From Mesotaenium endlicherianum (lineage: Eukaryota), in the NCBI GenBank assembly GCA_009602735.1, contig WELA01001243.1, forward strand, positions 186,445 through 226,046: 39,602 nucleotides of DNA. The letters run 5' to 3'. A model generated the notes under the pieces. The model was not told the origin of the DNA. It was given only the letters and a program-made list of their open reading frames with translations, and ran no database searches. Below, one piece after another: positions 7,399 through 33,899 of this stretch. The position numbers and the translations under genes were made by a program. How positions within the stretch are numbered: the first letter of the stretch is position 1; every line of letters begins with the position of its first letter.

Positions 7399-7566
7399 GT
7401 GCTGAATGTAATTGTGCAAGACCTTTTCCAAGGCCATCCAGTGAGTCAGAAGAAGCTCAAGGAGCTGCTTGGCCATACCCCTCTTCAAGTCGGAGCAGGA
7501 GCTGTTCTTGGTGCCGTTGTGTCATACTTCTACAACACAAGCACTTTGGCCGCAGTGGTGGTATAA
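7399..7566 (+). CDS. DUF212 gene, coding exon 3 (total about 351 aa)
   Basis: Acceptor TTTTTCCTGCCAG|GTG, motif LKELLGHTPLQVGAGAVLG, TAA at 7564-7566. Confidence 0.92.
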   Translation: MLNVIVQDLFQGHPVSQKKLKELLGHTPLQVGAGAVLGAVVSYFYNTSTLAAVVV

Positions 7567-9741: not shown

Positions 9742-10460
9742 TGAAATGAATTGACTTACCAAATAGGCGATTAACAATTAATAAAGATCTTTATATCAGC
9801 AAGTAATCTTTATGGATTTTCCATTAACTGATTAAACGGCAAAAGGACAACACACTAGCAGTGAACAACACTCGTAAGTCATATGCGAGTAAACCAGCAT
9901 CAATCATGCAATCAGTAAACTCATACATAAGCAAGGTTAGAAGACAGTGCATATCAATGGCTTCTCGCCTTGGATTCAGATCTCTCTCAGTAAGCCATAC
10001 AAGAGAGTTGGCCTCGTTTCCGAATGCCAAACTCGAGAGCAATGCCTAGCATATGTACATGGAATGAGTTTAGTGTTCAACGGCCAGTGCGATGGCACCG
10101 CCTACCCGGGAGTTAACCACGTTGGTACGACCTCGGTTGACCAAATCCACCGCCATCTCCCATCATCCCGAATCGCCATCTATCATAGGGATGTTATCTG
10201 GCCATTCATCTAGCATACCACACTTACATGCATATCGAGGCAGTCGCTGCTACCGAGTACGGAAGTCAGCTGGCTGTCAAAGAATGTGTCAGAAAGCTGA
10301 CTTAAGCTGACTTCAGCCTGCTGCTTTCGGCTGAGTCATTAAACTGATATTAAATATAAAGTCCAGCAGACTGATTATTAACTAGAGTTCAGAAGGCTGA
10401 ACTTATTTAACTGTTATATTTAAATGAATATTATATCAACCAATATACTGATTCAATACA
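9742..10460 (-). repeat. 3' LTR of element B (719 bp)
   Basis: Reverse complement of the element A LTRs; abuts PPT. Confidence 0.93.
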
Positions 10461-10496
10461 ATCCCTCCAACTTAACATGTTGTCGCCTCAACAACA
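10461..10496 (-). promoter_or_regulatory. Element B terminal PPT with upstream hairpin
   Basis: Minus strand TGTTGTTGAGGCGACAACA-TGTT-AAGTTGGAGGGAT directly before LTR TGTA. Confidence 0.85.
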
Positions 10497-10579
10497 CTGA
10501 CACAGGGTACATAGGTTTCCCCAACTGAAATTACTGATCCCTCTCCCATCCAGCATGCTATGCCCTTGGCCCTCCGCCC

Positions 10580-12244
10580 TTAGGAGGGAGATACCCCTGG
10601 GGCCCCATGGTCAGGGGAGTCAGTCCTCCTCCTGTCTTGGGGTCTTCTGAAGCCTGTCAGACATGGAGGTTCCGTGTAGGGACCCGTCGGAGAACGCAGT
10701 AACTGTGCTGTTTCCTCCTGCACGATCTGAAACTGAATGGAGGCAGCCTTCTCCTGGGCATCCCTCAAACTGACTGGTACATATACCAGCATCCCAGAAG
10801 GATGTTGCATGACATGAGCTAAGGGTACATGCCCTCTCTGCGAGGGAGATGCCGGCAGGCCTCTGGCTATATCTCTAGCAGCCCTCCTGTCTGCCCTGTC
10901 TGACTGGGTCTCCTTGCCTGGAGATGGGGTCTGTCCTCTGGCAGTTCCCAGCCAAGTGATATCCTCCTCTTCAGCGAGTTGCTGCATGGCCAACCCCGTC
11001 TTCTCCCTTATAGGGGATGTGGCAGGCGTCAGGATCACGGCGGGGCTAGTGTCCTCCTCCTCGCCTTCCTCCTCGTCTTCCTCTGACTCCTCCTCCTCTC
11101 CGTCCCCGGGTTCCTCTGAGACTTCTGGGGTCTCTTCTGTCAGCTGCTCCAGCTCTTCCCGAGAAAAAGAATATCCTACTGACCTTCCCCTTTTGGGTGC
11201 TGGTGGGGGCTGCTGAGTCCGGACCGCATAGAGGTCCTTTTCCCCCTGCTTACTTGCCCATTTGGCATAAGCGTGCTTCCCTTTTGAGAATGACTCTCGG
11301 GCCCTGCTTCTGTCCCCCTGCATCTCTTGGCTCATGCAGTCTCTGACTCCATCCAATCTTGGGTCCCAAGCCGCAATGTGAGGGGGCAATACTATGTTCC
11401 CCTTTAGGTCTGTCAGGAAATCCTCATCCGTCGCCCTGTCATTCTGCTGGTCCCTCATGTTGATGGTCATCCACCGCCAATCGGTGGGCTTTTGGAAGAA
11501 GGCAGGGTCTGTCCTTTTAAGAGTACAAGGGTACCAGTGCCCTGCAAAGTCTAGCTGCCTGGTTTCCTTGGCCAAGAATTCCCAGCTCCTTCTCACCACC
11601 TCATTATACATGGCCTTGAACCTGTTATGGGATGTAGAGTCCTTAAAGCTGTCCGCGTCCATGGGGATCATCCTGATGACCCTATCTTCCCTCCAGATAC
11701 CAGGAATCGATACAGATCCTGCTTCATTCACCTGGGCCATTGCCTTGGCCTCTCTGACCGTATACCCTACCATCCTGGCGTAATCGTGGTAGAGGAGGAG
11801 CCCCGTGCTGACCTCTATATACTTGTCAAAGTTTTCGGATGCCTCCCCTTCCCTCTGGAAGATGTCCTTTTGTGACTCACTGCGACTTCTCTGAGCATAC
11901 TTGAAGGCCTCCTCCAGTAGATCGAAGCCCTTGCCCAGTACTGTGTAGCGGTAGCTGCTGATTCTCCTCTGCTCTTCTTCCGCCTGCTGCTTCCGCTTCT
12001 CCTCAGCTTACCTCTCCTCCTCTGCTTTCTTGGCCTCCTCTGCAGCTTTTCTGTCCAGTTCTTCCTGCCTCAGTCTGGCCTGTTTCTCCTCCTCCTTCTT
12101 CTTCTGTGCCTCCCGCTGTTGTTGGAGTCGTTGTGATTCCCGAGCGGAGATGGAGGATGATTCGATGTGTCCACGGAATTGCAAGTATTCTGCATGTGCC
12201 TCTTCCGCCCTTCTCTTCCTCTTGAGTTCCGACTTTTGAGTCAT
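10580..12244 (-). pseudogene. ORF3 accessory gene of element B (554 codons, one in-frame TAA at 12008-12010)
   Basis: ORF-track frames 12008-12253 and 10580-11773 are the same frame; shares YRYTV, YNEV.RRSWE, PTDWRWMT, LPPHIA.WDPRL, FSKGKHA, GHVPLA.V.QHP.GM with element A ORF3. Confidence 0.85.
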
Positions 12245-12528
12245 CCTGCTCAATCATAAACACAATGCAGTTAGTGAAGTCATGATATTTTGCCGATACT
12301 GAGTGCCCTTGATGAAGAGGAACGCGATCGAGAGAGTTCCGAGTGTGAAATACCTGGTGTGAGTGAATATAAGGGAAAATTGAGTTAGATAGAAAGTGAG
12401 TGTGAGCGCAGGTTGAGTGTGTAATATGGTTATCAGAGATTTTCCGACTGATCCCGAAACAGAATACCACTCCCCCCAACTTAATTTTAAAGGTGGGCTG
12501 CCTGTCACAACTGTCACTAACTGTCACA

Positions 12529-12565
12529 TCCCCCTCCAACTTATATGGAGACAGGACCTCCTGTC
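12529..12565 (-). promoter_or_regulatory. Internal hairpin + PPT-like module after pol in element B
   Basis: Minus strand GACAGG-AGGT-CCTGTC then AAGTTGGAGGGGGA-TGTGACAG; a further PPT-like AAGTTGGGGGGAG at 12470-12482. Confidence 0.65.
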
Positions 12566-12592
12566 ACCTTTCCATGTCTACTGAAGGGACAG

Positions 12593-15174
12593 TTAGGGCG
12601 GTGCCCCAGCCGCCCCAAGGTGGAACCGTTCAACGCCCCTTTGGCATTGGTCAGCTGGCTTTTAAACTCCCAAGTGTCCCCAGAGGCATCGTAACCCTTC
12701 CATCGGATGAGGTACTTCATGACATATTTAGACGATCGACGGACCGAGCGAGCGTCTAAAATCTCATATTCCTCAGGGTCACCGTCCTGGACAGCAGGGA
12801 CCAGTCCCGGTTGGACAGGTAACCGACCTGTAAACAGTGTATCACCTTTGATGTATGGTTCCAAAAAGGAGACATTAAAGACCGGCTGACCCTTGTAGTC
12901 AATTTGTAAGCATTTTGACTGACACGACGCACTACCGAATATGTACCGACCCAGACAAGGCCAAGCTTTTCGGTGACCACACCAGGGTGGTACAGGTGCT
13001 GAGAATGCAGTTTAACTAAATCGTCCTTAGAAAATGTCAACTCCCGACGGTGTTGATTAGCGTATTTTTGTTGGTTTTCGTGGGCTCCCTGCAGGTTCTG
13101 CTGGACTTCTGACAAGGTGTCAGCAAACTCCTGAGTTAACTGGAGGGAGATCGGATTTTCAATCCCTTCAGGGTCAGTTAAAGATTCCCCCAGTCCATCA
13201 AAAGGAGACTTAGGGACTCTACCCAGGTTGAGTTCAAAAGGAGTCTTGCCCGTTGACGCGTGCACCGCACTGTTGACCGCAAACTGAATTTGAGGCAACA
13301 GGTCATCCCAATTATCTTGTTTTTGGTTAATATATGCTCTCAGCACATCCTGCAGAACTCGGTTAGTTCTTTCAGTCTGCCCATCAGTCTGAGGGTGGTT
13401 TGCTATGCTGAGCAGCTGTTTGACTCCCATTTACCCATTAAAGCTCTCCAGAACTTAGAGGTATATTTCGGATCTCGGTCTGAGATGATATTAGAGGGTA
13501 GCCCATGTTGGCATACTACATGGTTGTAGAACTGTCTCGCTGTTTCGAGTGCAGTTACTTTGACAGTTGTGGGGATGAAAATGACCATTTTTGTCAGTTT
13601 ATCCACGACTACCAGTATCGAATTATGCCCATTAGCCGTTCGTGGTAGTGTGATCACCCAGTCCATGGATATAGTTTCCCAGCCCCCGCTGAGATGGGCA
13701 GCGGTTGCAAGAAACCTCCCGGCGGTGTGTGCCTAGACTTATTTCTTTGACACTAATCACAGGACTTCACGTAATTCAAGACCTCCCGGGGCAACCCCTC
13801 CCAATGATAATGTTTTGCCAGTTTGCCAACAGTTTTGGCCTGCCCCAAATGCCCACCCAGTAAACTGTCATGGGCTTGACTCAATAAAAGGGACCTTATT
13901 TTCAAGTTATTAGGAATGACCAGCTTCAGCCTGCCTGAAGTGGTTTCAGTCACCCAGACCCCTCCCTTAAGCTTATACCCGAGTGCAGTAGCACGACACA
14001 CACCAGTAGTGGGGCTGGGCTCAAATGTTGGGTCAGAAAGGTAGGCTTTCCTAAGTTGTTCAAGGAAGGACTTTTTCACCTTTAGTGAAGTGAGTGCACA
14101 CAGGACTTTATCTACAGCATGCTGACTGAAGTTCCTTTCGTGCAAGTCAGGTCTTCTAGAGAGTGCATCAGCAGGATTCAACTTCCCTGGTTTGTAGTCG
14201 ATCTGGACTTGGAACTGCTCCAGCATCTGGCTCCAACGGTTCTCCCTCCTCGACTTTTTCTGAAAGTGGGTCAGAGCTATGATATGTAATCACCTTGAAG
14301 GACTTACCATGTGAGTATGCTTTCCACTGTTTGAGCACATGAATGATAGCTAGCAGCTCTTTATCATGCACTGAGTAATTAATCTCCGCTGAATTAAATT
14401 TCATAGACTTATACAACACAGGGTGCCACTCCTGCCTTACCTTATCATCCTTTGTGGTTTTGTCCGCAGGCTGCAACAAAATAGCACCCATGGCAAAGTC
14501 AGAGGCATCAGTGACTACCTGCACCGGTTTGCTGGGGTCATACACGGCTAGCACTGGGGCAGAACAAAGGGCATCTTTAAGGGTCTGGAAGGCAGCCTGC
14601 TGCTCTTCCCCCCACACATACCCTATGTCTTTCTTAGTAAGGTCAGTCAGTTTACCTTTGTGGAATAATTCCCCATAAATCTTCTGTAGTGATTAGCCAT
14701 CCCGAGGAAGGATCTAACTTCAGAGACAGACTGTGGTACTGGCCAGTCCCTTATGGTCTGAACTTTCTTAGGGTCCACACTGATGCCCTCTTTACTGACA
14801 ACGTGGCCTAAGAATTCTATACTCTTTTAAAAGTTATCACACTTGCTCATTTTAGCATATGACTGATTTCTTTTCAAAATGTCCACGACTGTCTTTAAGT
14901 GTTCAGCGTGCTGAGTCTTATCTTTAGAGAAAATTAAAATATCATGCAGGAAGACTTGCACAAATTTATCCAAATAAAACCGAAAAATGTCATTCATAGC
15001 ACCCATAAAGGTTGCGGGAGCATTAGTCAGTCCAAATGGCATCACGTTGAACTCGTAGTGTCCATAACGTGTGCGGAAGGCAGTCTTGTGTTCATCCCCT
15101 TCAGCAGTTCTGATTTGATGATAACCACTCTTGAGATCTATCTTACTGAACACCTTAGCACCAAATAGGGTATC
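12593..15174 (-). pseudogene. pol: Element B pol, 3' part (RT, RNase H, integrase, chromodomain), frameshifted
   Basis: Fragments nearly identical to element A pol ([41 protein letters not shown]); FLDD mutated to FLHD; several frame breaks. Confidence 0.93.
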
Positions 15175-15179
15175 AAGCT

Positions 15180-15951
15180 TGTAATGAATCAGTATATTAG
15201 TAGATAGAATATTCATTTAAATATAATAGTTAATTAAGTTCAGCCTGCTGAACTTTAGTTATTAGTCAGTTTGCTAGACTTTACTTAATAGTCAGTTTGC
15301 TGAACTTTACTTAATAGTCAGTCTGCTGGACTTTACATAAGTATCAGTTTACTGACTCAATGGAAAGCAGCAAGCTGAAAGTCCATATAAGTCAGCTTGC
15401 TGACACATTCTTTGACAGCAAGCTGACTTCCGTACTCGGTAGCAGCGAACTGCCTTGATATGCATCTAAGTGCGATATGCTAGATGAATAGCCAGATGAC
15501 ATCCCTATGATGGATGGCCATTCGGGATGATGGGAGATGGCGGTGGATTTGGTTAACCGAGGTCCTACCAACGTGGTTAACTCCCGGGTAGGCGGTGCCA
15601 TCGCACTGACCGTTGAACAGTAAACTCATTCCATGTACATATGCTAGGCATTGCTCTCGAGTTCGGCATTCGGAAACGAGGCCAACTCTCTTGTACAGCT
15701 TACTGAGAGAGATCTGAATCCAAGGCGAGAAGCCATTGATACGCACTGTCTTCTAACCTTGCTTATGTATGAGTTTACTGATTTGCATTATTGATGCTAG
15801 TTTACTCTCATTTGACTAACGAGTAGTATTCCCTGCTAGTGTATTGTCCTTTGCCGTTTAACGAGTTAACGGAAATACCATAAAGATTACTTGCTGATAT
15901 AAAGATCTTTATTAATTGTTAATCGCCTATTTGGTAAGTCGATTCATTTCA
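15180..15951 (+). repeat. 5' LTR of element A (772 bp)
   Basis: TGTAATGAATC...GATTCATTTCA with terminal inverted repeat; followed by PBS. Confidence 0.95.
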
Positions 15952-15952
15952 G

Positions 15953-15964
15953 TGGTATCGGAGC
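15953..15964 (+). promoter_or_regulatory. Primer-binding site, tRNA-iMet type
   Basis: TGGTATCGGAGC 1 nt after the LTR; one A>G difference (G:U compatible) from the plant TGGTATCAGAGC. Confidence 0.9.
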
Positions 15965-15985
15965 AGTTATCACAGTCGTCTTGGT

Positions 15986-17464
15986 ATGGTAAGGACAAGG
16001 TCTGAAACTAGCAACTCCCGAGACATGGAGAACCAGGATAACGAGAATGTCGAAAACCAGGCTCAAAGCCATGTAGCGGGAAACCGTACCTATTCGGAAG
16101 CAGTAGCGGATACTGCAGCTAGGGAGGCAGCAAATGAGGCAGCTGCTATTGCCTCAGTCGCAGCTCAGCAAGCTGAGGAGGAGATAGCCAGACTAGAAGC
16201 TGAACAAGTAGCAAAGGCCGCTGAAGATATACAAAGGAGGGAAGGACAGCCAGCTGACGAGCGCACTGTTGAAGAACTTATGGCATCAAGGGCCAATGTT
16301 CTGAACCCACCTCCTGCCGTACAACTCAATGTACCCCTAGGTCAAATACGTGACCGGCTGAATGCGGCAGGAATTGCTGCTGCAGGAGCAAGAGGGATTG
16401 TTGAGGACACTACTCAGCGAGTAGATGCCAATGCTGCTGCTGCATTTGCTAATCTACCACCCCAAAATGTAGACTTGGGAGCATTGTTCGTTCAGATGCA
16501 GTCGCAAATGGCGACCATGTATCAGTCCCAGCAGGAGGACAAAAGAATCATAATGTCCCTACTCCGGGACAGAGACCAACTGGGGTCTCACACCACTAGT
16601 GGTGGTGGCCGAGGGCCTAGTAAGCCCAAGCCGAAACCTCCCCAGGACTATGATCCTGAGGGAAACAGAAAATATTACCTGATCAAGTTTCTCGCGGATG
16701 TTGAGCAGTGGCTGGAGAACTACCCAGAACTGCAAGATTACGAGAAGGTCAGGCACACCGGTGCGCTACTGAAAGGCAGTGCCGCAGACTGGTGGCTTTA
16801 CTGGAAGGAAGAGCGTAAGGCTCGGCAACTCGGTGACCCTACGTGGGTAGAGTTTGTCGAGAAGTTGCATGAGAAGTTTGATGTCATCAACCAGCAGGAG
16901 AAAGCTATCTATGCGATGATCTCCCTGACACTGAAGCAGACCACTTCAGTTGCTGAGTTTGCTCAAAAGTTCCAAGAGAACATGATGAAGCAGCCTGATT
17001 TGCCAGAACGGTATAGGATAGCATACTTCAGGTATGGCTTGAAATCCGAGGTCTCTGGTCATTTTGCTGAGAAAAAGTATGAGAAACTGGCTGACTTGAT
17101 CCAGGATGCTGACGCCTGGGATCAGCAGCAGTTCAATCACAAGCGCCAGAGTAACGCTTTGGTGTCTAAGATTGTCAAAAAGCCCCACGGTTCCTACAAT
17201 GCAGTTGAAGGAGACCAGGCTGAGGATAATCAGGGTGATGAATATGAGTATGAGTACAATGCTATTCAGTCTAGAGGTAGAGGTGGTCCCTCTCGAGGTG
17301 GCTATGGAAGGGGTGGTGGTAGGACTAAGCCGAGACCAGCCTCAGCAAAATCTACTTGCTACCATTGTCAGCAGAAAGGCCACTACAGAGAACAGTGTCC
17401 GGTCAAGCACCTGCCTAAGGTCGAGAGAAAAGACCAGCCTTTAAAAGACAGCAACAGTCAGTAA
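15986..17464 (+). CDS. gag: Gag (492 aa) of element A
   Basis: Capsid-like [10 protein letters not shown]...[22 protein letters not shown] repeats, CCHC knuckle [14 protein letters not shown]. Confidence 0.95.
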
Positions 17465-17487
17465 TCCAGTCTACTGACTGTGAGGAT
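17440..17487 (+). promoter_or_regulatory. Predicted -1 ribosomal frameshift signal joining gag and pol
   Basis: T TTA AAA heptamer in gag frame (17440-17446), 7-nt spacer, perfect 10-bp stem ACAGTCAGTA/TACTGACTGT; the -1 frame is open into pol. Confidence 0.8.
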
Positions 17488-20400
17488 GCTAGAGATAGTG
17501 AGTCGTCACTAGCTGCCCTCGTAGCAGGTATTATGGGTCCTGCTGAACTGGATTCACTATGCATGCCTGACAACCAGATAAAGGAGACCATCAGCAATAT
17601 AGACGTCCAGAGAGTGCACACTCTGGATGCTCTTGTTCCACCTGATGTCCAACATTTCTTTGCTACGTCAGGAGAACAATGCGAAAGTCAGGAAAAGACA
17701 GTCCCCCCTATCCTACTGCATTGCATGATTGCAGGTAGGAAGGTGAGGGCATTTGTTGACGGAGGGGCGTCACATACTTTTATCCACAAGGACTTAGTTA
17801 AGCGGCTAAGGCTGCCTACTGTCACCCAAGGGAATAGAAAAATATTCCTTGGAGATGCCTCAAGTATCCCGGGAGGAGTTATAACCAAGCCTATTGAGGT
17901 CCAGTTAGGTTCTGGCATTGCAGTTCTAACTGAAACGCTTACATTTGAGGTACTCAACACTGGCTTTTATGATCTCGTGCTAGGCAGGTCCTGGCTTAAT
18001 AGACATCAAGCTGAAGTGTGTTGGAGCAGAGGTACAGTTAAAGTGAGAGGAGCCAGTGATGGGCAGACTGACTTGGCACCCACCAGTGCTCTTCCTCTTG
18101 TCCTGTGTGGATGGCAAATGAAGGAAAAGAAGAGGCTTCCAGAAGGATGCAAGTTGCTGAATGCAATGGAGTTCGTCAAAAGCTGGAACCAGAAGGAAGA
18201 CAGAATGTTCTGTCTGCTGCTAAGAGAGGTACCTCCTCAACCTGAAGAAGTGGTTGAGAAAAAGGTACACCCTCCGGAACACCCTACTGCTGCAAACATT
18301 GTTGCTCAGTACACGGATGTGTTTAATATGCCTCCAGGACTACCCCCTAAGCGGGAAGTAGATCATAGGATTGATTTATTACCTGGTAGCCAGCCACCCT
18401 GGCAACGCACGTATGGCTTGTCTTATTTGGAGAGTGAGGAGTTGAAAACACAGATTGCAGAGCTGGAGGAAAATGGTTACATTTCTCCCAGTAAATCACC
18501 GTACGGCGCACCTATCCTATTTGTTAAGAAAAAGGATGGCAGTATGCGGATGTGTGTGGATTACAGAGCCCTGAACAGAATTACAGTAAAGAACAAGTAT
18601 GCTTTACCCAGAATCGAGGACTTGCTTGATACCCTGTCTGGCGCTAAGGTGTTCAGTAAGATAGATCTCAAGAGTGGTTATCATCAAATCAGAATTGCTG
18701 AGGGGGATGAACACAAGACTGCTTTCCGCACACGTTATGGACACTATGAGTTCAACGTGATGCCATTTGGACTGACTAATGCTCCTGCTACCTTTATGGG
18801 TGCTATGAATGACATTTTCAGACCTTATTTGGATAAGTTTGTGCAAGTTTTCCTGGATGATATTTTAATTTTCTCTAAAGATGAAGCTCAGCACACTGAA
18901 CACTTAAAGAAAGTGCTGGACACTCTGCGGAAAAATCACTTGTATGCTAAAATGAGCAAGTGTGATTTCTTTAAGGAAAGTATTGAATTCTTAGGCCACG
19001 TTGTCAGTAAAGAGGGCATCAGTGTGGATCCTAAGAAAGTCCAGACCATAAGGGACTGGCCAGTACCACAGTCTGTCTCTGAAGTTAGATCCTTCCTCGG
19101 GTTGGCTAACTACTATAGGAGATTTATTGAGAATTATTCCACAAAGGCCAGTAAACTGACTGACCTTACTAAGAAAGACATCGGGTATGTGTGGGGGGAA
19201 GAGCAGCAGGCTGCCTTCCAGACCCTTAAAGATGCCCTTTGTTCTGCCCCAGTGCTAGCCGTGTATGACCCCAGCAAACCGGTGCAGGTGGTTACTGATG
19301 CCTCTGATTTTGCCATGGGTGCTATTTTGTTGCAGCCTGCTGACAAAACCACAAAGGATGGTAAGGTACGGCAGGAGTGGCATCCTGTGTTGTATGAGTC
19401 TATGAAATTTAATCCAGCGGAGATTAATTACTCAGTGCATGATAAAGAGCTGCTAGCTATCATTCATGTACTCAAACAGTGGAGAGCATACTTACATGGT
19501 AAAGCTTTTAAGGTGATTACAGATCATCTAGCTCTGACCCACTTTCAGAAGAAGTCCAAGCTGTCGAGGAGGGAGAACCGCTGGAGCCAGATGCTGGAGC
19601 AGTTCCAAGTCCAGATCGACTACAAACCAGGGAAGTTGAATCCTGCTGATGCACTCTCTAGAAGACCTGACTTGCAAGAAAGGAACTTTAGTCAGCATGC
19701 TGTAGATAAAGTCCTGTGTGCACTCACTTCACTAAAGGTGAAAAAGTCCTTCCTTGAACAACTTAGGAAAGCCTACCTTTCTGACCCAACATTTGAGCCC
19801 AGCCCCACTACTGGTATGTGTCGTGCTACCGCACTCGGGTATAAGCTCAAGGGAGGGGTCTGGGTGACTGAAACCACTTCAGGCAGGCTGAAGCTGGTCA
19901 TTCCTAATAATTTGGAAATAAGGTCTCTCTTACTGAGTCAAGCTCATGACAGTCTCCTGGGTGGACATTTGGGGCAGGCCAAAACTGTTGGCAAACTGGC
20001 AAAACATTATCATTGGGAGGGGTTACCCCGGGAGGTCTTGAAATATGTCAAGTCCTGTGACCAGTGTCAGAGAAATAAGTCTCGGCACACACCACCCGGA
20101 GGTCTCTTGCAACCGCTACCCATCCCAGCGGGACGCTGGGAAACTATATCCATGGACTGGGTGGTCTCACTACCAAGAACTGCCAACGGGCATGATTCAA
20201 TACTGGTAGTCGTGGATAAACTGACAAAAATGGTCATTTTTATCCCCACAACTGTCAAAGTGACTGCACTCGAAACAGCGAGACAGTTTTACAACCATGT
20301 AGTATGCCAACATGGGCTCCCTTCTAATATCATCTCAGACAGAGACTCAAAATTCACCTCTAAGTTCTGGAGAGCTTTAATGGGGTTAATGGGAGTCAAA

Positions 20401-21249
20401 CAGCTGCTCAGCACAGCAAACCACCCTCAGACTGATGGGCAGACTGAAAGAACTAACCGAGTTCTGCAGGAGGTGCTGAGAGCATATATTAACCAAAAAC
20501 AAGATAATTGGGATGACCTGTTGCCTCAAATTCAGTTTGCGGTCAACAGTGCGGTGCACGCGTCAACGGGCAAAACTCCTTTTGAACTCAGCCTGGGTAG
20601 AGTCCCTAAGTCTCCTCTAGATGTGCTAGGGGAATCTTTAACTCACCCTGAAGGGATTGACAACCCGGTCTCCCTCCAGTTAACTCAGGAGTTTGCTGAC
20701 ACCCTGTCAGAAGTCCAACGAAACTTGCACACGGCCCAAGAAAACCAACAAAAATACGCTAATCAACACCGTCGGGAACTGACATTTTCCAAGGGGGATT
20801 TAGTCAAACTGCATTCTCAGCACCTGTACCTCCCTGGTGTGGTCAAGAAAAAGCTTGGCCCTGTCTGGGTCGGTCCATATTCGGTGGTCCGTCGTGTCGG
20901 TCAGAATGCTTACAAACTGAACATGTCAGCTGAATACAAGGGGCACCCGGTCTTTAATGTCTCCTTCCTGGAACCGTACATCAAAGGTGATACACTGTTC
21001 ACAGGTCGGTTCCCTGTCCAACCGGGACCGGTCCCCGCTGTCCGGGACGGCGACCCTGAGGAATATGAGGTCGATGAGATTTTAGACGCTCGCTCGGTCC
21101 GTCGATCGTCTAAATATGTCATGAAATACCTCATTCGATGGAAGGGTTACGATGCCTCTGGGGACACTTGGGAGTTTAAGGACCACTTGACCAATGCCAA
21201 AGGGGCGTTGACACGGTTCCACCTTCGGGCCGCTGGAGTCCCTCCATAA
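17440..21249 (+). CDS. pol: Pol of element A: protease, RT, RNase H, integrase (HHCC, DDE, GPY/F), C-terminal chromodomain (first Met 17533)
   Basis: [64 protein letters not shown]...[17 protein letters not shown]...[16 protein letters not shown]. Confidence 0.97.
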
Positions 21250-21276
21250 CTGTCATTTCAGTTGACACGGGAAGGT

Positions 21277-21312
21277 GACAGGCGGTCCTGTCTCCATTTA
21301 AGTTGGAGGGGA
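21277..21312 (+). promoter_or_regulatory. Internal hairpin + PPT-like module after pol in element A
   Basis: GACAGG-CGGT-CCTGTC (21277-21292) then AAGTTGGAGGGGA (21300-21312), same core as the terminal PPT. Confidence 0.65.
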
Positions 21313-21485
21313 AAATATATGACAGTTAGTGAGCGAGAGCGATAAAAACACACTCATACGTTTATGTGTAGCGCATCGCAACTACGTCAACTTTTAGCAA
21401 TCATCCTGTAAGGTAAACAGCAGCGAAGCCACTATACTAAATACTAACATACTTCCTGCAATCCCTATGACAAAGGTCCATATCC

Positions 21486-21519
21486 TACTAACTTGTGCCC
21501 TGGTTACATGTGCAGGATG
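21486..21519 (+). promoter_or_regulatory. Branch point and 3' splice site immediately upstream of ORF3 ATG
   Basis: TACTAAC (21486-21492) ... TGTGCAG|G ATG (AG 21514-21515); equivalent CACTAAC...GAGCAG|G ATG in element B (12276-12242). Confidence 0.7.
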
Positions 21520-23193
21520 GCGCCCACCACACAAAAGGAGGACAGAAAGCGCAAGGCAGAAGAAGCCAGGAGGACAATGGAGCAATACCAGAAGGAGCTG
21601 GCGGCGACGTCCCTCACCAGGAGAGAACAAGAAAGGGTCCGCAAACAACAAGAGGCGGCAGAAGAGGCACAGAGGAAGAAGGATCAGGAAGCGGAAAACC
21701 TCAGGAAGGCTGAGGAGGAGAGACAGAAGAAACAGCAAGAAGAAGCGGCAGCGGCAGAAGAGGAGAAAAGAAAAAAGATTGAAGCGGACAGACAGAAGAG
21801 CTTGGCCACTTACAGGTATACTGTGGTGGGTGGCCAAAACTTCGATAACCTGAAGGAAGCATTGCTGGCAGCCCAGGAGATCAACAGGCTGGAACAGACA
21901 ACACTGCTACAGAAGGAAGGAGCTACAGCACTGGACAGGTACATCGAGACACACACCGGCGTGGTCCTTTACGAAGATTATGCTAAGATGGTGGGCTATA
22001 CAGCAGAGCAGGCCCGGTATCTCGCAGATGATTCAGAGGACAAGCCGGTCCCCATACCGGGAATAGTGGGAGATCAGAGACTCATCCGGATGGTGAGCAT
22101 GCGGCCCGATAGCTTTAAGGATACGGTATTCTACCTCACACTCCTGCCAGCTTACAATGAAGTTGAGAGAAGGAGCTGGGAGTACTTGGCCAGGGAAGCA
22201 GGACAGCAGATGTTCTCTCCCCACTGGTTCCCGTGTAAACTGAGGAAGGCTGAGCACGGACCCCAGTACTACCAGCAGCCAACAGACTGGAGGTGGATGA
22301 CCGTCACAAATAAGAAGCAGGAGTGTGACCGAGCCCAACCGGATGACTTCCACTATGGCCTAGACGGCTATCTCATCCTACCACCTCACATTGCCCCTTG
22401 GGACCCCAGGCTGAATGGATGCCTGAGCAATATGAATGCAGAGACCAAGGAACATAGGAGGAGGGGAAGAGACTACTTCTCTAAGGGAAAGCATGCCTTT
22501 GTCAAATGGGCAAAGAATGCAGGCCGGATAGATATCAGTAGGCTGAAGGCCAAGCAACCTCCAGCGCGCCCTAAGAAAGGGAGGTCGGTAGACTACTCCA
22601 TGTCTACTAGGGAGCAGGACGACTTAGTGGACGAGACCCCTACTCTCTCCGAGGAGGAGGATGAGGAGGATGAGGAAGAAGAACAAGGCAGAGGAGAAGC
22701 ATCAGCAGCAGGTACTCAGGATACCCAGGGACAGGCAGTGGCACTTCCTAAAGAACCACGATCAGGTGTGTGGAATGTGATCCCCGTTATGGCGACAACT
22801 GGACCCCGCGCTCGCTCCCCCAGCCCACCTGCCCAAGCAGGGGAAGAAGCTGATCTGACTGTACTGGGCAGCAGACACAGGCAGAAATCCCCAGAGGACA
22901 GGGGTGCCAGAAGAGGGACACGCGGGTGGGCCAGAGGTATGCCAGCCTCCCCCTCCGCTCAGGGGCATGTACCTCTAGCCAATGTATTTCAGCATCCTAC
23001 TGGAATGCCTGTCTATGTGGGAATCAACACCCAAATAGTTGAAGAGCAGGCCACCATCCTCCGTTCTCCTCGAGGGCCAACTTTAGAGCAAACAGGGTTC
23101 TTTAGAAGGCCAGCTGACAGACCTAGAGGGCTGTCCAGATCTAGGTCCAGATCTCCGTCCCCTGATCCTGAAGCCCCAGGAACCACCCCTTAA
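21517..23193 (+). CDS. ORF3: uncharacterised 558-aa accessory protein (N-terminal charged coiled coil, aromatic-rich central domain, acidic tract, SP/RS-rich tail)
   Basis: Intact ORF between pol and 3' LTR; homologous copies in elements B and D with conserved motif blocks; no hydrophobic segment seen. Confidence 0.9.
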   Translation: MAPTTQKEDRKRKAEEARRTMEQYQKELAATSLTRREQERVRKQQEAAEEAQRKKDQEAENLRKAEEERQKKQQEEAAAAEEEKRKKIEADRQKSLATYRYTVVGGQNFDNLKEALLAAQEINRLEQTTLLQKEGATALDRYIETHTGVVLYEDYAKMVGYTAEQARYLADDSEDKPVPIPGIVGDQRLIRMVSMRPDSFKDTVFYLTLLPAYNEVERRSWEYLAREAGQQMFSPHWFPCKLRKAEHGPQYYQQPTDWRWMTVTNKKQECDRAQPDDFHYGLDGYLILPPHIAPWDPRLNGCLSNMNAETKEHRRRGRDYFSKGKHAFVKWAKNAGRIDISRLKAKQPPARPKKGRSVDYSMSTREQDDLVDETPTLSEEEDEEDEEEEQGRGEASAAGTQDTQGQAVALPKEPRSGVWNVIPVMATTGPRARSPSPPAQAGEEADLTVLGSRHRQKSPEDRGARRGTRGWARGMPASPSAQGHVPLANVFQHPTGMPVYVGINTQIVEEQATILRSPRGPTLEQTGFFRRPADRPRGLSRSRSRSPSPDPEAPGTTP

Positions 23194-23270
23194 GGTGACA
23201 GGCTGAAAAGATAGTCAGTAAGGGAGGCTGGTCAGGGTCAGTTTCTTTATTTAAAGCTTTTGCAGTTTAA

Positions 23271-23306
23271 TGTTGTCGAGGCGACAACAAGTTAAGTTGG
23301 AGGGAT
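23271..23306 (+). promoter_or_regulatory. Terminal hairpin + PPT of element A
   Basis: TGTTGTCG-AGG-CGACAACA (23271-23289) then AAGTTGGAGGGAT (23294-23306) abutting LTR TGTA. Confidence 0.88.
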
Positions 23307-24025
23307 TGTAATGAATCAGTATATTAGTGGATATAATATTCATTTAAATATAATAGTTAATTAAGTTCAGCCTGCTGAACTTTAGTTAATAATCAGTCTG
23401 CTGGACTTTACATAATTATCAGTTTAATGACTCGGCCGAAAGCAGCAGGCTGAAGTCAACTTAAGTCAGCTTGCTGACACATTCTTTGACAGCCAGCTGA
23501 CTTCCGTACTCGGTAGCAGCGAACTGCCTTGATATGCATCTAAGTGCGATATGCTAGATGAATGGCCAGATGACATCCCTATGATGGATGGCTATTCGGG
23601 ATGATGGGAGATGGCGGTGGATTTGGTTAACCGAGGTCCTACCAACGTGGTTAACTCCCGGGTAGGCGGTGCCATCGCACTGACCGTTGAACAGTAAACT
23701 CATTCCATGTACATATGCTAGGCATTGCTCTCGAGTTCGGCATTCGGAAACGAGGCCAACTCTCTTGTACAGCTTACTGAGAGAGATCTGAATCCAAGGC
23801 GAGAAGCCATTGATACGCACTGTCTTCTAACCTTGCTTATGTATGAGTTTACTGATTTGCATTATTGATGCTAGTTTACTCTCATTTGACTGACGAGTAG
23901 TATTCCCTGCTAGTGTATTGTCCTTTGCCGTTTAACGAGTTAACGGAAATACCATAAAGATTACTTGCTGATATAAAGATTTTTATTAATTGTTAATCGC
24001 CTATTTGGTAAGTCGATTCATTTCA
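23307..24025 (+). repeat. 3' LTR of element A (719 bp)
   Basis: Direct repeat of 15180-15951, followed by TSD AAGCT. Confidence 0.95.
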
Positions 24026-24030
24026 AAGCT

Positions 24031-25213
24031 AGTCCTTGATTCTCGGTAAAGCATACTTGTTCTTTACCGTACTTCTGTTCAGGGCTCTGTAATCCGCACA
24101 CATCCGCATACTGCCATCCTTTTTCCTAACAAATAGGATGGATGCGCCGTAAGGTGATTTACTGAGAGAAATATAACCATTTTCCTCAAGCTCTGCAATC
24201 TGTGTTTTCAACTCCTCGCTCTCCACATAAGACAAGCCATAAGTGCGTTGCCAGGGTGGCTGACTACCAGGTAATTAATCAATCCTATGATCTACTTCCC
24301 GCTTAGGGGGTAGTCCTGGAGGCATATTAAATACATCCGTGTATCGAGCAACAATTTTCGCAGCAGTAGGGTGCTCCGGAGGGCTTACCTTTTTCTCCAC
24401 CACTTCTTCAGGTTGAGGAGGTACCTCTCTTAGCAGCAGACATACTATTCTGTCTTCCTTCTGGTTCCAGCTAATGACGAACTCCATTGCATTCAGCAAC
24501 TTGCATCCTTCTGGAAGCCTCTTGTTTTCCTTCATTTGCCATCCACACAGGACAAGAGGAAGAGCACTGGTGGGTGCCAAGTCAGTCTGCCCATCACTGG
24601 CTCCTCTCACTTTAACTGTACCTCTGCTCCAACACACTTCAGCTTGATGTCTATTAAGCCAGGACCTGCCTAGCACGAGATCATAAAAGCCAGTGTTGAG
24701 TACCTCAAATGTAAGCGTTTCAGTTAGAACTGCAATGCCAGAACCTAACTGGACCTCAATAGGCTTGGTTATAACTCCTCCCGGGATACTTGAGGCATCT
24801 CCAAGGAATATTTTTCTATTCCCTTGGGTGACAGTAGGCAGCCTTAGCCGCTTAACTAAGTCCCTGTGGATAAAAGTATGTGACAACCCTCCGTCCACAA
24901 ATTCCCTCACCTTCCTACCTGCAATCATGCAATGCAGTAGGATAGGGGGGACTGTCTTTTCCTGACTTTCGCATTGTTCTCCTGACGTAGCAAAGAAATG
25001 TTGGACATCAGGTGGAACAAGAGCATCCAGAGTGTGCACTCTCTGGATGTCTATATTGCTGATGGTCTCCTTTATCTGGTTGTCAGGCATGCATGGTGAA
25101 TCCAGTTCAGCAGGACCCATAACACCTGATACGAGGGCAGCTAGTGACGACTCACTATCTCTAGCATCCTCACAGTTAGTAGATTGGATTATTGACTATT
25201 GCTGTCTTTTAAA
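24031..25213 (-). pseudogene. pol: Element B pol, 5' part (protease and RT N-terminus)
   Basis: ORFs 24275-25120 and 24029-24235 match element A pol; YALPRIKD continues across element A into LDTLFGAK; premature stops. Confidence 0.92.
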
Positions 25214-26585
25214 GGCTGGTCTTTTCCCTCGACTTTTGGGAGGTGCTTGTCTGGACACTGCTCTTTGAAGTGACCTGGCTGCTGGCAATGGAAGCAAATC
25301 GATTTTGCTGAGGCTGGTCTCGGCTTAGTCCTACCACCACCTCTTCCATAGCCGCCTCGAGGAAAACCACCTCTACCTCTAGACTGTATGGCATTATACT
25401 CATGCTCATACCCATCACCCTGATCATCCTCAACCTGGTCTCCTTCAATTGCATCGTAGGAAACGTGGGGCTTTTTGACAATCTTAGACACCAAAGCATT
25501 ATTCTGGCGCTTGTGATTGAACTGCTCTTGATCCCAGGCGTCAGCATCCTGGATCAAGTCAGCCAGTTTCTCATACTTTTTCACAGCGAAATGACCAGAG
25601 ACTTCGGATTTCAAGCCATACCTGAAGTATGCTATCCTATACCGTTCTGGCAAGTCATCGCATTGATAGCTTTCTCCTGCTGGTTGATGACATCAAGCTT
25701 CTCATGCAACTTCTCGACAAACTCTACCCACGTAGGGTCACCGAGTTGCCGAGCCTTACGCTCTTCCTTCCAGTAAAGCCACCAGTCTACGGCACTGCCT
25801 TTCAGTAGCGCACCGGTGTGCTTGACCTTCTCGTAATCTTGCAGTTCTGGGTAGTTCTCCAGCCACTGCTCAACATCCGCGAGAAACTTGATCAGGTAAT
25901 ATTTTCTGTTTCCCTCAGGATCATAGTCCTGGGGAGGTTTCGGCTTGGGCTTACTAGGCCCTCGGCCACCACCACTAGTGGTTTGAGATCCCAGTTGGTC
26001 TCTGTCCCGCAGTAGGGACATTATGATTCTTTGGTCCTCTCGTTGGGACTGATACATGGTCGCCATTTGCGACTGCATTTGAACGAACAATGCTCCGAAG
26101 TCTACACTCTGGGGTGGTAGTCTAGCAAATGCAGCAGCAGCATTGGCATCTACTCGCTGAGTAGTGTCCTCAACAGTCCCTCTCGCTCCTGCAGCAGCAA
26201 TTCCTGCCGCATTCAGCCGGTCACGTATTTGACCTAGGGGTACATTGAGTTGTACAGCTGGAGGTGGGTTCAGAACATTGGCCCTTGTTGCCATAAGTTC
26301 TTCAACAGTGCGCTCGTCAGCTGGCTGTCCTTCCCTCCTTTCTGTATCTTCAGCAGCCTTTGCTAATTTTTCAGCTAATTTGGCTCTCTCCTCCTCAGCT
26401 TGCTGTGCTACGACTGCGGCAATAGCAGCTGCCTCATCTGCAGCCTCTCTAGCTGCAGTATTTGCCACTGCTTCAGAATAGGTACGGGTTCCCGCTACAT
26501 GGCTTTCCGCCTAGTTTTCGACATTCTCGTTATCCTGGTTCTCCATGTCTCGGGAGTTGCTAGTTTGAGACCTTGTCCTTACCAT
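25189..26585 (-). pseudogene. gag: Element B gag, broken by an ~79-bp frameshifting deletion near 25655
   Basis: ORFs 25632-26468 and 25189-25653 match element A gag; segment equivalent to ~16920-16999 is missing, with short TGA microhomology. Confidence 0.92.
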
Positions 26586-26606
26586 ACAATGAAGACTGTG
26601 ATAACT

Positions 26607-26618
26607 GCTCCGATACCA
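26607..26618 (-). promoter_or_regulatory. PBS of element B (tRNA-iMet type)
   Basis: GCTCCGATACCA on + strand = TGGTATCGGAGC. Confidence 0.9.
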
Positions 26619-26619
26619 C

Positions 26620-27367
26620 TGAAATGAATCGACTTACCAAATAGGCGATTAACAATTAATAAAAATCTTTGTATCAGCAAGTAATCTTTACGGATTTTTC
26701 GTTAACTGATTAAACGGCAAAAGAACAATACACTAGCAGTGAATAATACTCGTAAGTCATATGCGAGTAGACCAGCATCAATCATGCAATCAATAAATTC
26801 ATACATAAGCAAGGTTAGAAGACAGTGCGTATCAATGGCTTCTCGCCTTGGATTCAGATCTCTCTCAGTAAGCTGTACAAGAGAGTTGGCCTCGTTTCCG
26901 AATGCCAAACTCGAGAGCAATGCCTAGCATATGTACATGGAATGAGTTTACTGTTCAACGGCCAGTGCGATGGCATTGCCTACCCGAGAGTTAACCACGT
27001 TGGTAGGACCTCGATTAACCAAATCCACCGCCATCTCCCATCATCCCGAATCGCCATCTATCATACGGATGTCATCTGGCCATTCATCTAGCATACCACA
27101 CTTACATGCATATCGAGGCAGTCGCTGCTACCGAGTACGGAAGTCAGCTGGCTGTCAAAGAATGTGNCAGCAAGCTGACTTAAGCTGACTTCAGCCTGCT
27201 GCTTTGGGCTGAGTCATTAAACTGATATTAAATATAAAGTCCAGCAGACTGATTATTAACTAGAGTTCAGCAGGCTGAACTTATTTAACTAGNGTTCAGC
27301 AGGCTGAACTTATTTGACTGTTATATTTAAATGAATATTATATCAACCAGTATACTGATTCATTACA
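26620..27367 (-). repeat. 5' LTR of element B (748 bp; one extra 29-bp U3 repeat; two N bases)
   Basis: Direct repeat of 9742-10460; ends CTGATTCATTACA on + strand. Confidence 0.93.
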
Positions 27368-29145
27368 CTTAGTGGTTGTATCGGGTCGACGTTGGAGCCG
27401 TGTGCCTGATTGCCTCGCACCATGGTTTCTTGATGTGTCTCTATAACAGCTTAGGACGACTTTGTCGACCCGCAAAAAAACTTGAGAGGCAGTTCAATCG
27501 CTATAAGAGACTTGCTGAGTGCCTTATATAAAGTTTTGAGAGGAAACAAACCACAAGTTGGGCTTCCACCTTTAACTTAAGGTGATGATTATCAGCACAA
27601 CATATAGCACAATATAGTGTCGTGCCTAACCACGTCGAGATCGGGGCACGTGTGTTGATCTCCAACACGTGCGCCATTGGCCTGGTCGACTTGTCGGTGC
27701 ACCTTCGCACGTGGGTTGTCAAACTGGTCAATCACCAAGGATCGATTTCCGCACGTGTGTCGCTGGTTGGTTGCATGAGGGTAACCATCTATTGGTCATC
27801 CTGCACTAGCACAAGCTAGTTTGGGGGTAGAGTCTCTTAGAGTTTTCCACACCAAGTGTTATCTCCTAGTTCCTGTTTTTGGACTTCGCAATTCTTGCAG
27901 AAAGTTTTTTACTACTTAATTTTCTGGACACAGTATGACACAAGTGTCTACATTTTGATACGCTTTTGCCCAAGCTAAAGGATGTTGACCATAATTCACT
28001 TTGCAGAAAGCACGTCAAACAGGTTAAACAAGAAACTTCAGAATTCAGAGTAAATTGTCCACTAGGGTTTTGCTTAACTTTCAAAAGCCACAGCTTACAA
28101 AAATCTGAATCTTACAGCACCTATGTCAATTTGATTAAGTCTTTTGCTCCTAGCCACACGCCTGCCAATTCTTTGTTGCATGCTGAACTTTCTCTTTTTT
28201 TTAATGAGGGTTACTCTTGCTAATCCTACTCTGTCATGTCCATTGTTGTCGAGTTCCTTTGGTGTCAAGATGTAGTAACAGAGGGTGGAGAGTGAATGAC
28301 AGTTCGTAGTGGTTGGTTGGGTTAGAGTGGTAGATGAGGATGGTTAAGTCCATGTAGAGTGGTGGTGAACAATGAAATCCATGATCCGCTCATGAGGATC
28401 TGCTGTTCAGCAGCTGTGAGGCTCTCGCATCACGCGCACTATCCTCACCTCCACACGTGGTGCCGCCGCCCACACGTGTGGAGGTTAACCTTCAAGTTTG
28501 CTTGCCTTAAGGATTGGCTCGGGTACCCTGTGGGGTCCCCCACGGACTATTGCTAAGTCGTCACGTATAGTAGACAATCTCGACGATTATGCCCCCGGGA
28601 TTGTTAGGGGATAGGGAGAGTAAGGGGTGAAGGGGAGGCGAATTAACGTTGACTTGAGACGTTGGAGTTCGTCCGTCCGTAGGTACGATTTGTGTGTACA
28701 GTAACGCGGTGACGCGTTATCCGTGTTAGGTAGCTCTTTTTTTTCTTCGTAGGCACTGGGCATAGGTTGTGACTCGTAAGGGCACGCTACTTAGGCCAAA
28801 AGCTAACTCCATTATGGCGTTACTTTTGTGTGTTTGTTGTACATGCTTTGAGTTGCTGATCTTTTTTACTACGTGACTTATTGATTGCTCTGCTGGTTAT
28901 GCGTCAATGTTTGCCTCTCTTCGCTAGTAGGCCGCTTGTATTGCACTCCATTGAAGCATATTAAGAATGGATTGTATGCACTCTGGCTTGGCCATGACAC
29001 AAGCTAATCGCTCACGTATTCCTCCGCGCTCCTAGAGTTAAATCCCGCATACATAGTAAACGCAAATACTAGTCCGCCCCAGCTCATCACATACAAAAGC
29101 TAACTTTGCATACTACCCGGGTTAGAAGCTAGGAGCGGGTAGAAT

Positions 29146-31646: not shown

Positions 31647-32839
31647 TGAAATAAATCGACTTACCAATATGAGAGGGGGATGCTGGCTGACCTCTGGCTG
31701 CCTTCTTGGCAGCCCTTCTGTCAGCTCTGTCTGATTGAGTCTCACCTCCTGGAATGGGACTCCTCCTAATAAAACTCCCCAGCCACTGGAGATCTGGGTC
31801 TCTTGGTGGGCTAGTATCCCCAAGCTGCTGCAGGGCTGCATGTGCAAAGGCCCTTCCAGTGGGGGATGTAGCGGGGGTTTGTGCCTCAACAGGACTAGAC
31901 TCCTCTCCGGCGCCTTCCTCTTCTTTGTCCTCCTGTTCCTCTGAGACTTCTGGAGTCTCTTTGGTCATCTCCTCCACCCGTTCCCGAGAAAAAGAGTATC
32001 CCACTGACCTCCCCCTTTTGGGTGCAAGTGGGGGTTGGTGGGTCCTGACCGCATACAGGTCTTTCTCCCCTTGCTTACTAGCCCATTTGGCATAAGCATG
32101 CTTCCCCTTAAAACAAGAATCTCTAGCCCTGGTCCTATCCTCCTGTGTCTCCTGACTCATGCAGTCCCTGACTCCATCCAGTTGTGGATCCCATGCTGCA
32201 ATGTGAGGTGGCAACACTATCTTACCCTGCAAATCTGCCAGGAAATCGTCTTCCTCAGCTCTGTCACTATGCTAGTCCTTCATGGTGATGGTCATCCAGC
32301 GCCAATCAGTGGGCTGTAGAACAAAAGCAGGATCCGTCCTCTTCAAAGTACAGGGGTACCAGTGACCTGAGAAATCCAGCTGGCTGGACTCCCTTGCCAG
32401 AACTCCCAGCTTCTTCTCTCCACCTCGTTATACATGGCCTTGAACCAATTGTGGGAAGTGGCATCCTTGAAGATGTCTGTATGCATAGAGATCAACCTGA
32501 TGACCCTGTTTGTGTCCCAAATCCCAGGTATTGGCACCGTTTCAGATTCACCTATCTGGGCCAATGCTTTGGCCTCCCGGATCGTATACACCACCATCCT
32601 GGCATAGTCATGGTACAGTAGAAGCCCCGTGCTGACTTCTATGTACTTGTCAAAACCTTGGGCTATCTCCCCTTCCCGCTGCAGTATGTCCCTCTGTGAT
32701 TCACTTCGGTTCCTCTGGGCGTACTTGAAGGCCTCCTCCAAAAGATCAAAGCCCTTTCCCATCACCGTGTAGCGGTAGCTTTTGATTCTCCTATGTTCCT
32801 CCTCTGCCTGCTGCTTCTGTCTCTCCTCAGCAAACCTTT
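31647..32839 (-). pseudogene. Remnant D: third ORF3 copy (B-like), fused to the last ~21 nt of a family LTR and cut by element C
   Basis: ORFs 32343-32765 and 31603-32232 closely match element B ORF3; TGAAATAAATCGACTTACCAA at 31647-31667 equals the LTR terminus. Confidence 0.85.
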
Positions 32840-33759
32840 TGTAACGTTTTTTCTTTTCAAGAGTATCTTTCCCCGGTATTCAAGGAATATTTAATTGAAG
32901 TGGAAAGAAAATCTATATACTTGTGCGAATTGACGAATACTTGAAATAGCGAAAATGAAAACTAATGTAGAATGTGTGCTTGTGAGAGTTGCACTCACAA
33001 TGACTCTTGCGAGTATTTATACTTGCAAATCGTGAGGCACTGGAGTGCTTCGAGTCACCACCTAGGATACTGGTTCATGTTCAACGAAAACGGTCAAAGG
33101 GGTACGACCCATTCGGCCGAATGCTCGAAACGCACCGTTTGGAAATTTGCAGACTTTTCGACGGTTTCCAGAAAACCGTTTCACGCCAAACGGGCGTTTT
33201 CGCGTTCGCGCGACTGTTGAAAAGTCGCGACTGTTCGTGGAGTCGCGTACACATGCGTTCGTCATGAATCGGGAGTTATAAATAATTACTTCTCCAATTG
33301 ATTAGGTGTGAACGTTTCAAACGACGAGTCGCGGGTTCGAATCCGCTCGGATGCAAAGTCGCTTTGCATATTATGTGTCGTTTGACTTTTACGACTGTTT
33401 CTTCGTATTAACGACTGGTCGTAAATGCGAAATCTATGACTGTGCATTATCCGAAACAATGACAATCATACCAACTTAACCAATCCGAGATTTATTAAGT
33501 TATCATCTCATACTCAATCAAAGTAACTTTATGAATAATTATGTTGTAATTTTGCGAAGTGGTTGAGTTACGTTACGACGCTTTTTGCAATAGTATCTCG
33601 GTCGTTTCGCCAATCGACCAGGAATTAATCGGCACACGCGTGTGGCAAATAATAGAATATGATGCAATCATTTATCAAATAGTATGATAAATAGTAAAAC
33701 GTACTCTAGGTAATTGGGAAAACGTCCCAAGTACGCCTAAAATAGCTTGGATCATTACA
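32840..33759 (-). repeat. Putative 3' LTR of element C (920 bp)
   Basis: Starts TGTAATGATCC right after PPT (minus), ends CGTTACA exactly where ORF3 homology of D begins; partner LTR absent. Confidence 0.72.
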
Positions 33760-33899
33760 CTCCTCCCCACTTAAAAGAACTTAACGTCCTCGTTAAGCGT
33801 ACGTCTTTTATGTCTGAAAGTGTCAATACTAGCATTGACTAGCGGAAAACATTGGTGAGCGATTGGACTATGCATCATCACAGTGACGGAAAAGAGCGG

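Follow-up and report, generated by a model that had tools for sequence, protein, structure and literature searches.

Extra open reading frames (ORFs) are common and heterogeneous in plant retrotransposons and are reported mainly from the OTA and SIRE lineages (PMC6317226; PMC7264820; PMC11963269); their function is regarded as an open question (PMC7264820; PMC11963269). Athila, Calypso, Bagy2, and the Sireviruses carry an additional sense ORF between pol and the 3' LTR (PMC7264820; PMC2829016). For Athila4, Calypso, and the Sireviruses, extra polypurine tracts (PPTs), an inverted repeat at the PPT, and repeated motifs around the 3' ORF are also described (PMC2829016), and splicing or an internal promoter has been proposed for expression of these 3' ORFs (PMC7264820; PMC2829016). 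Bongo3, a Tekay chromovirus of Beta vulgaris, has an additional PPT past the chromodomain, immediately at the stop of gag-pol (PMC3605345), and further internal copies of the plus-strand primer are the central PPTs of Ty1, HIV-1, and EVADE (PMC7197481). Recombinants between elements have been reported from the grass CR chromoviruses, from Ty1, and from ONSEN; chromovirus variants were found to recombine and the recombinants to amplify (PMC4079200; PMC6894440). Swapping of env in endogenous retroviruses yields a 3' gene whose history is discordant from that of gag-pol (PMC10536682).

The chromovirus family described here was analyzed in a stretch of 39,602 nucleotides from Mesotaenium endlicherianum (contig WELA01001243.1), denoted as the window. 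Its full-length member, element A, shares with Bongo3 the second PPT at the end of gag-pol; the available text on Bongo3 mentions neither an extra ORF nor an exchangeable cassette, and Bongo3 belongs to an angiosperm clade, whereas the reverse transcriptase (RT) of A falls outside the angiosperm group (PMC3605345). Athila, Calypso, Bagy2, and the Sireviruses are non-chromovirus gypsy or copia elements, whereas the additional ORF of the present family (ORF3) exhibits neither a transmembrane segment nor detected similarity to anything; in this comparison, only the present family carries two synonymously saturated ORF versions on one backbone. The multiple-PPT signature of Sireviruses (Ty1/copia order, PPT octamers near the 3' LTR) is absent, as the order is that of gypsy elements and a single internal copy lies 2 kb upstream. 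In contrast to the swapped env genes, ORF3 does not encode an envelope, and the element is an intracellular one of a plant-lineage host. LTR, UTR, and polyprotein segments are exchanged in the grass CR, Ty1, and ONSEN cases, not an accessory gene of saturated divergence (PMC4079200; PMC6894440). Each single ingredient, i.e. extra PPT, 3' ORF, and inter-element recombination, is known already. Their combination was not found described in the literature covered (titles and abstract openings, with few subscription papers); the supplements of PMC6317226 may list extra ORFs of chromoviruses.

Layout of the locus and the chromovirus backbone

The window contains a nest of related elements (Table 1). 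Two elements, A and B, had been proposed from the letters alone. A was recovered as such, and "B" turned out to be one element that A splits into the parts B and C. Reading of the junctions revealed AAGCT on both sides of A and CTAAG/CCAAG flanking the B/C element. The LTR pair of B/C diverges by 4.2% and that of A by 0.8% outside one tract, thus B/C is the older element.

Table 1. Features of the nested elements; positions are those of the window, and + and - denote the strand.
Feature	Positions	Strand	Remarks
Element A, full-length chromovirus (Ty3/gypsy)	15180..24025	+	inside pol gene of element B/C; 5-bp target duplication AAGCT
A 5' LTR	15180..15951	+	LTR alignment
A gag (Ty3 capsid, zinc knuckle)	15986..17464	+	
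A pol, -1 frame: PR-RT-RH-INT-SH3-chromodomain	17419..21249	+	
Final ~25 codons of pol, in which the A and B types have already diverged from each other	21174..21249	+	X7 fork, third positions
Internal module, conserved; inverted arms TAACTGTC/GACAGTTA with short hairpin and PPT copy (21299-21310) between them; four TGACA/TGTCA motifs	21247..21332	+	
Type-specific leader of A	21333..21516	+	
ORF3, A type, 558 aa	21517..23193	+	
Terminal hairpin 23271-23289 and PPT 23293-23304	23271..23306	+	
A 3' LTR	23307..24025	+	
B, 3' portion of the older host element (frameshifted 3' part of pol, module, B-type ORF3)	9742..15178	-	
3' LTR of B	10460-9742	-	
B internal module and degenerate second copy ~60 nt downstream (GTGACAGG...TAAGTTGG), leading to third PPT-like tract	12470..12600	-	
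ORF3, B type, 554 codons	10580..12244	-	one premature stop near 12008
C, 5' part of host element: 5' LTR 27367-26620, gag, pol 5' part	24026..27367	-	
E, third, broken ORF3 remnant	31650..32840	-	ends in family's LTR end; own backbone outside window

Element A shows the chromovirus domain order PR-RT-RH-INT followed by a C-terminal chromodomain (Chromo PF00385, E 2e-8, residues 1216-1268), and the family possesses the corresponding ends: TG...CA LTRs, a 5-bp target duplication, and a terminal PPT. At the gag/pol overlap, the gag frame contains T TTA AAA (17440-17446), presumably, by its form, a canonical -1 slippery site. The 5' LTR is followed by TGGTATCGGAGC at the position of the primer-binding site (PBS; seen by eye), a candidate PBS of the initiator tRNA-Met type. 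Members of the Tcn1 clade mostly lack a tRNA PBS and are self-priming (PMC6317226); the candidate tRNA-Met-like PBS, seen by eye, would argue against Tcn1 membership of A. The best identity of the A RT is at most 61% among the 120 matches listed. In the RT tree, which took 58 of 122 sequences (aligned over 270 residues or more, and either labelled or no less than 58% identical) and lacks labelled references for Chlamyvir, Tcn1, Galadriel, Tekay, Reina, and CRM, A clusters with Closterium and with unnamed proteins (support 0.89) and lies apart from the angiosperm group (1.00). By eye, the chromodomain of A is of the aromatic-cage type (cf. PMC6317226). Both the RT grouping and the chromodomain type suggest an alga or a plant other than a seed plant as the host.

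The two LTRs of A differ at 14 of 197 positions in the first ~280 alignment columns and at 4 of 522 in the rest. The divergent U3-side tract of the 5' LTR (15180-15450), which also comprises a 52-nt repeat expansion, would render LTR-based dating of A wrong. This mosaic structure suggests, independently of ORF3, exchange between copies, either by switching of the RT or by ectopic conversion. The LTRs of A and those of B/C separate into two pairs at 24 of the 25 sites that are informative.

Several neighbors were noted in passing. In the region 31650-37100, element D is a decayed, 5'-truncated chromovirus of a different family, the RT of which groups with Haematococcus elements. Its 919-bp LTR adjoins remnant E, where a deletion of more than 1 kb joins ORF3 directly to the family's LTR end. 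A host gene with introns occupies 4664-7500, with a DUF212 (divergent PAP2) match in the exon at 6309-6530, and a GC-rich open frame of 820 codons without Pfam match lies at 696-3158. A direct repeat of 147 nt (86%) at 29138-29620 begins near TGTAACG and is possibly the solo LTR of another family.

Divergence and expression of ORF3

According to the original prediction, A and B are, by eye, at least roughly 90% identical in Gag, Pol, and LTRs and only about half identical in ORF3, with sharp edges on both sides. The comparison bore this out. In 100-nt windows between 18624 and 21223, 85-99% of the aligned pairs are identical; the value is 83% in 21224-21323, falls to 39-65% of columns in 21324-23223, and reaches at least 90% again in the LTR. 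The BLAST match over pol ends at A 21332/B 12514, and the next one starts at A 23271/B 10496, at the edges proposed. The ORF3 products are 49% identical in amino acids, and the codon-aligned DNA is 56-59% identical. For A versus B/C, dS is 0.14 in gag (462 codons), 0.065 in the 5' part of pol (399 codons), and 0.21 in its 3' part (849 codons), with patchy regional values in pol from 0.065 to 0.28; the noncoding LTRs of the two elements differ by 6.0-7.7%. ORF3 is synonymously saturated between A and B (pS 0.80 over the whole ORF and 0.79 in the core, where 36 of 48 fourfold sites differ). Similar synonymous divergence of backbone and ORF3, which had been named beforehand as counter-evidence, was hence not observed, the divergence in ORF3 being at least 6-fold greater than in pol. 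In the leader and the 3' UTR of the cassette, alignment of A and B is no better than that of shuffled sequences (118 and 128 of 300 shuffles, respectively, reach the score).

The protein of remnant E is 79% identical to B and 51% to A. Over 282 codons, ORF3 of B and E differ with dN 0.112 and dS 1.22, and the resulting dN/dS of about 0.09 shows ORF3 to be a genuine gene on which purifying selection acts strongly. Since ORF3 is saturated and gag-pol and the LTRs show much younger values, the ancestry of ORF3 is far older, by several-fold, than that of the gag, pol, and LTR flanks in the one A/B pair that possesses both parts.

The ORF3 product consists of an N-terminal coiled-coil-like helix, a conserved core, an acidic linker, and a Pro/Arg/Ser-rich tail, and contains basic clusters including PKKGR/PKRGR. 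As a sense ORF between pol and the 3' LTR, ORF3 occupies an env-like position. An env function was rejected because a transmembrane segment is lacking (maximum 19-residue hydropathy of 0.73 for A and 0.92 for B). No homologs were found among 4803 candidates, among 588 metagenome contigs, or in the PDB. A search against 1.84 billion sequences returned one spurious repeat protein (E 8e-4), Pfam just a sub-threshold low-complexity match, and Atlas no usable match to the core. The structure model (pLDDT 40.6, pTM 0.20) is unusable, with the long N-terminal helix as its sole confident part.

At the end of the leader, before the start codon, both A and B carry ACTAAC...GCAG/GATG (the slash marks the putative junction), possibly a candidate branch point with a 3' splice site. 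The end of each family LTR displays a splice-donor-like TTTG/GTAAGT (15930-15939, 24004-24013), which might pair with the acceptor-like site at 21515. Three raw RNA runs with the same species label (X22, X23, and X24; 6-12% of each) gave sparse coverage of ORF3: most reads lie on the LTR, ORF3-B received few (X23 and X24) and ORF3-A none (X22 and X23, both of the two runs compared), and no splice joint for ORF3 appeared among the sparse reads of the three runs. Sparse reads over the 3' end of pol and the B-type leader (20070-21419; 12164-12800) have the orientation that antisense RNA would show, perhaps the read-through of one locus.

The internal and terminal modules

Both edges of the cassette had been proposed to carry a hairpin followed by a PPT. 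The PPT 12-mer TAAGTTGGAGGG occurs four times in the window, precisely at the four places foreseen (A 21299 and 23293; B 12543 and 10474), at a composition-based expectation of 0.0008 per element, and a third, degenerate PPT-like tract is indeed present in B at 12482. The hairpins exist as well (GACAGG/CCTGTC in the internal, TGTTGTCG/CGACAACA in the terminal module), but they are only modestly stabler than shuffled sequences (z -2.2, -1.9, -1.2, and -0.9). The view of the two modules as repeats of each other did not hold, as they share just the 12-13 nt of the PPT. Likewise, the proposed relic LTR start was rejected: TGTGACAG follows the PPT in B only, A exhibits ATATGACAG there, and the family LTR starts with TGTAATG, of which only TGT matches. 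TGTGACAG is instead one of the TGACA/TGTCA motifs, the density of which in the module (4 per 100 nt) is the maximum of the window, equalled at one other place only. An ancestral 3' end is a possible origin of the internal module.

The noncoding bases of the internal module are 89% identical between A and B (70 of 79), which is close to pol; the differences break none of the 21 predicted pairs, and compensatory changes are absent. The PPT copy, located 50 nt past the pol stop, is identical to the 3' PPT over 12-13 nt in A and B and is kept at 12 of 12 positions in both types, while the adjoining leader is without detectable similarity, which points to a present function. Decay like that of the leader would be expected of a neutral relic; the internal PPT is thus probably still functional, and its likeliest role would be to prime the plus strand at a second site. 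This role would be analogous to that of the central PPTs of Ty1, HIV-1, and EVADE, whereas the present copy is noncoding, follows pol, and sits at 69% of the element length instead of near the center within pol (PMC7197481).

As a separate observation, AAGGTGACAGGC of the internal module recurs at the ORF3 stop codon of A (23192-23203); B lacks this copy. A metagenome contig matching the module motif was rejected as a chance match of 20 nt.

Origin and probable exchange of the two ORF3 types

Family-level evidence stems from public sequencing runs; X1 is possibly from the same sample as the source DNA, and X7 and X15 belong to different studies. The summed depth in X1 is about 1.8-2.0 million for the LTR, 0.90 million for gag-pol, 0.51 million for ORF3-A, and 0.30 million for ORF3-B (medians for the internal parts), with an LTR-to-internal ratio of ~2 as expected. 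Summed contig depth is not equal to copy number, and B, being decayed, is under-counted by these values; as fractions of pol depth, the A type accounts for about 0.56 and the B type for about 0.33 (sum 0.90). The family is largely two-type, with little room for copies devoid of ORF3. A deletion joint between internal and terminal PPT was not found among the joints listed (15 of 54 and 15 of at least 307).

In X7, the two types fork from one pol path. A single pol contig (686 nt, depth 49.8) ends at B 12668, equivalent to about A 21174; this point precedes the end of pol by ~75 nt and the internal PPT by ~125 nt. Two contigs with a summed depth of 52.7 continue from there. The B-like arm (17.3) runs without a break as far as 12545, and the loose end of its counterpart (depth 35.4, obtained by subtraction) reads by eye as A 21212-21241. 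Another loose end, located on the 3' side at 10496, matches A 23261-23270 (by eye), and the first ~140 nt of U3 exist in two variants with depths of 34.9 and 12.7. Given the two U3 variants, the types may represent subfamilies in partial linkage, between which exchange was rare and old and not ongoing. In the window itself, the third positions of the last 8 pol codons differ between A and B in 5 of 8 cases, a small count chosen post hoc, versus 101 in 851 codons farther upstream (P ~0.001), and only 1 of 844 upstream windows reaches five differing third positions.

In the simplest reading, a gradient of divergence rises toward the cassette, the module is conserved by selection, and the apparent edge at 21332 is where the constrained element stops. 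The 89% identity of the module would also result if an earlier crossover at its 3' edge had been followed by linked divergence. On the 3' side, hairpin and PPT are the first shared sequence, and a past crossover there, next to it, or at the start of U3 is plausible.

Taken together, two abundant and very old ORF3 versions reside on the much younger backbone of a high-copy family, most likely as a result of inter-copy recombination that re-assorts the shared flanks around the cassettes; the probability of this reading is put at roughly 0.6. Of the original interpretation, the divergent ORF3 versions on one gag-pol/LTR backbone are retained on account of dS and the X7 fork, but switching at repeated modules is not, as the fork lies ~125 nt before the PPT. 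The re-assortment would probably be brought about by template switching during reverse transcription, with the cassettes being too divergent to recombine with each other. Retroviral template switching is reported to drop below 1% under 82% similarity (PMC3187697); as it needs high similarity, the ORF3 cassettes stay intact. Crossovers would fall mainly into the long homologous pol region upstream and into the terminal hairpin, PPT, and U3 downstream. The internal stem-plus-PPT module would then be a cis-element held by selection inside a divergent block and not a switch point, most likely a second plus-strand priming site and possibly also a control region of ORF3. ORF3 itself is predicted to be a soluble nuclear accessory protein, produced from a spliced or internally promoted RNA. 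Two abundant, conserved, half-identical orphan protein versions on a near-uniform backbone offer a natural controlled comparison. Re-assortment of this kind would mean that a chromovirus from outside the seed plants exchanges cassettes in the manner of env, which family trees based on RT would hide.

A possible, although clearly less probable, alternative assumes one or a few old captures of the ORF3 of a sister family via RT recombination or ectopic conversion of integrated copies, perhaps after hybridization or horizontal transfer, since when the A and B types would have persisted as partly linked subfamilies without ongoing swapping. It overlaps with the re-assortment reading, the main difference being the frequency of exchange. 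The type-linked U3 start and last pol codons in X7 and the separately pairing LTRs of A and B/C are in line with such captures, and comparable histories have been reported from CR elements of grasses (PMC4079200), whereas patchy pol dS, the single pol path in X7, and the mosaic 5' LTR of A suggest repeated exchange.

Rather unlikely is the mechanism initially proposed, in which the hairpin and PPT modules are the crossover points where the RT pauses and swaps the cassette between co-packaged RNAs. The identity edges coincide with the modules, the noncoding module is well conserved, and on the 3' side shared sequence resumes with the terminal hairpin (loose end at 10496 in X7); moreover, hairpins and pauses promote strand transfer (PMC3187697), and for Sireviruses additional PPTs have been proposed as an aid to recombination (PMC2829016). 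Against this, type-specific sequence in X7 runs unbroken across the module from ~125 nt before the internal PPT, and the excess of third-position differences lies directly upstream of the module. Exchange of alleles requires homologous flanks and not a repeat of the 12-13 nt that the modules share, and an internal-to-terminal PPT joint is missing among the joints listed.

That the module is mainly a DNA promoter or enhancer for ORF3, with TGAC-core sites for a TALE homeodomain (KNOX/BELL) factor or for ORF3 itself and the PPT as an incidental feature, is unlikely. The density maximum of TGACA/TGTCA agrees with this view, as does the multiplication of the motif in B and in variants from X1. TGAC is a submotif of plant KNOX-BELL sites, with YGAC shared by the Chlamydomonas zygote element (PMC4889651), and repeated motifs cluster upstream of the ENV-like genes of Sireviruses (PMC2829016). 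Yet the motif was chosen post hoc, the full zygote element is unmatched, and the exact 12-nt PPT copy is left unexplained. Contigs of the X1 run contain an extra or duplicated GACAGTTA arm past the module (21317-21353).

More speculative, and quite improbable, is the idea that the ORF3 versions are ancient accessory regulators, e.g. sequence-specific proteins that are anti-silencing or trans-activating and switched on by the TGAC cluster, for instance in the zygote, which frequency-dependent selection keeps in one genome. If true, this would constitute a balanced polymorphism within a transposon family, with a swappable cassette carrying its own control module.

Rapid evolution of the ORF3 protein without any exchange was rejected as very improbable: plant retrotransposons generally show strong divergence in their extra ORFs (PMC6317226), but here synonymous and noncoding saturation is confined to the cassette, dN/dS is about 0.09, and protein-level selection cannot raise dS. 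An assembly chimera, conceivable in a nested and repetitive region, was rejected as practically negligible because both elements are flanked by target duplications and the junctions are bridged by contigs (X1 10356-10564 and 12461-12613; X15 23095-23322). A further X1 contig joins gag to the start of the 3' LTR (16823/23307) and possibly represents an internally deleted derivative.
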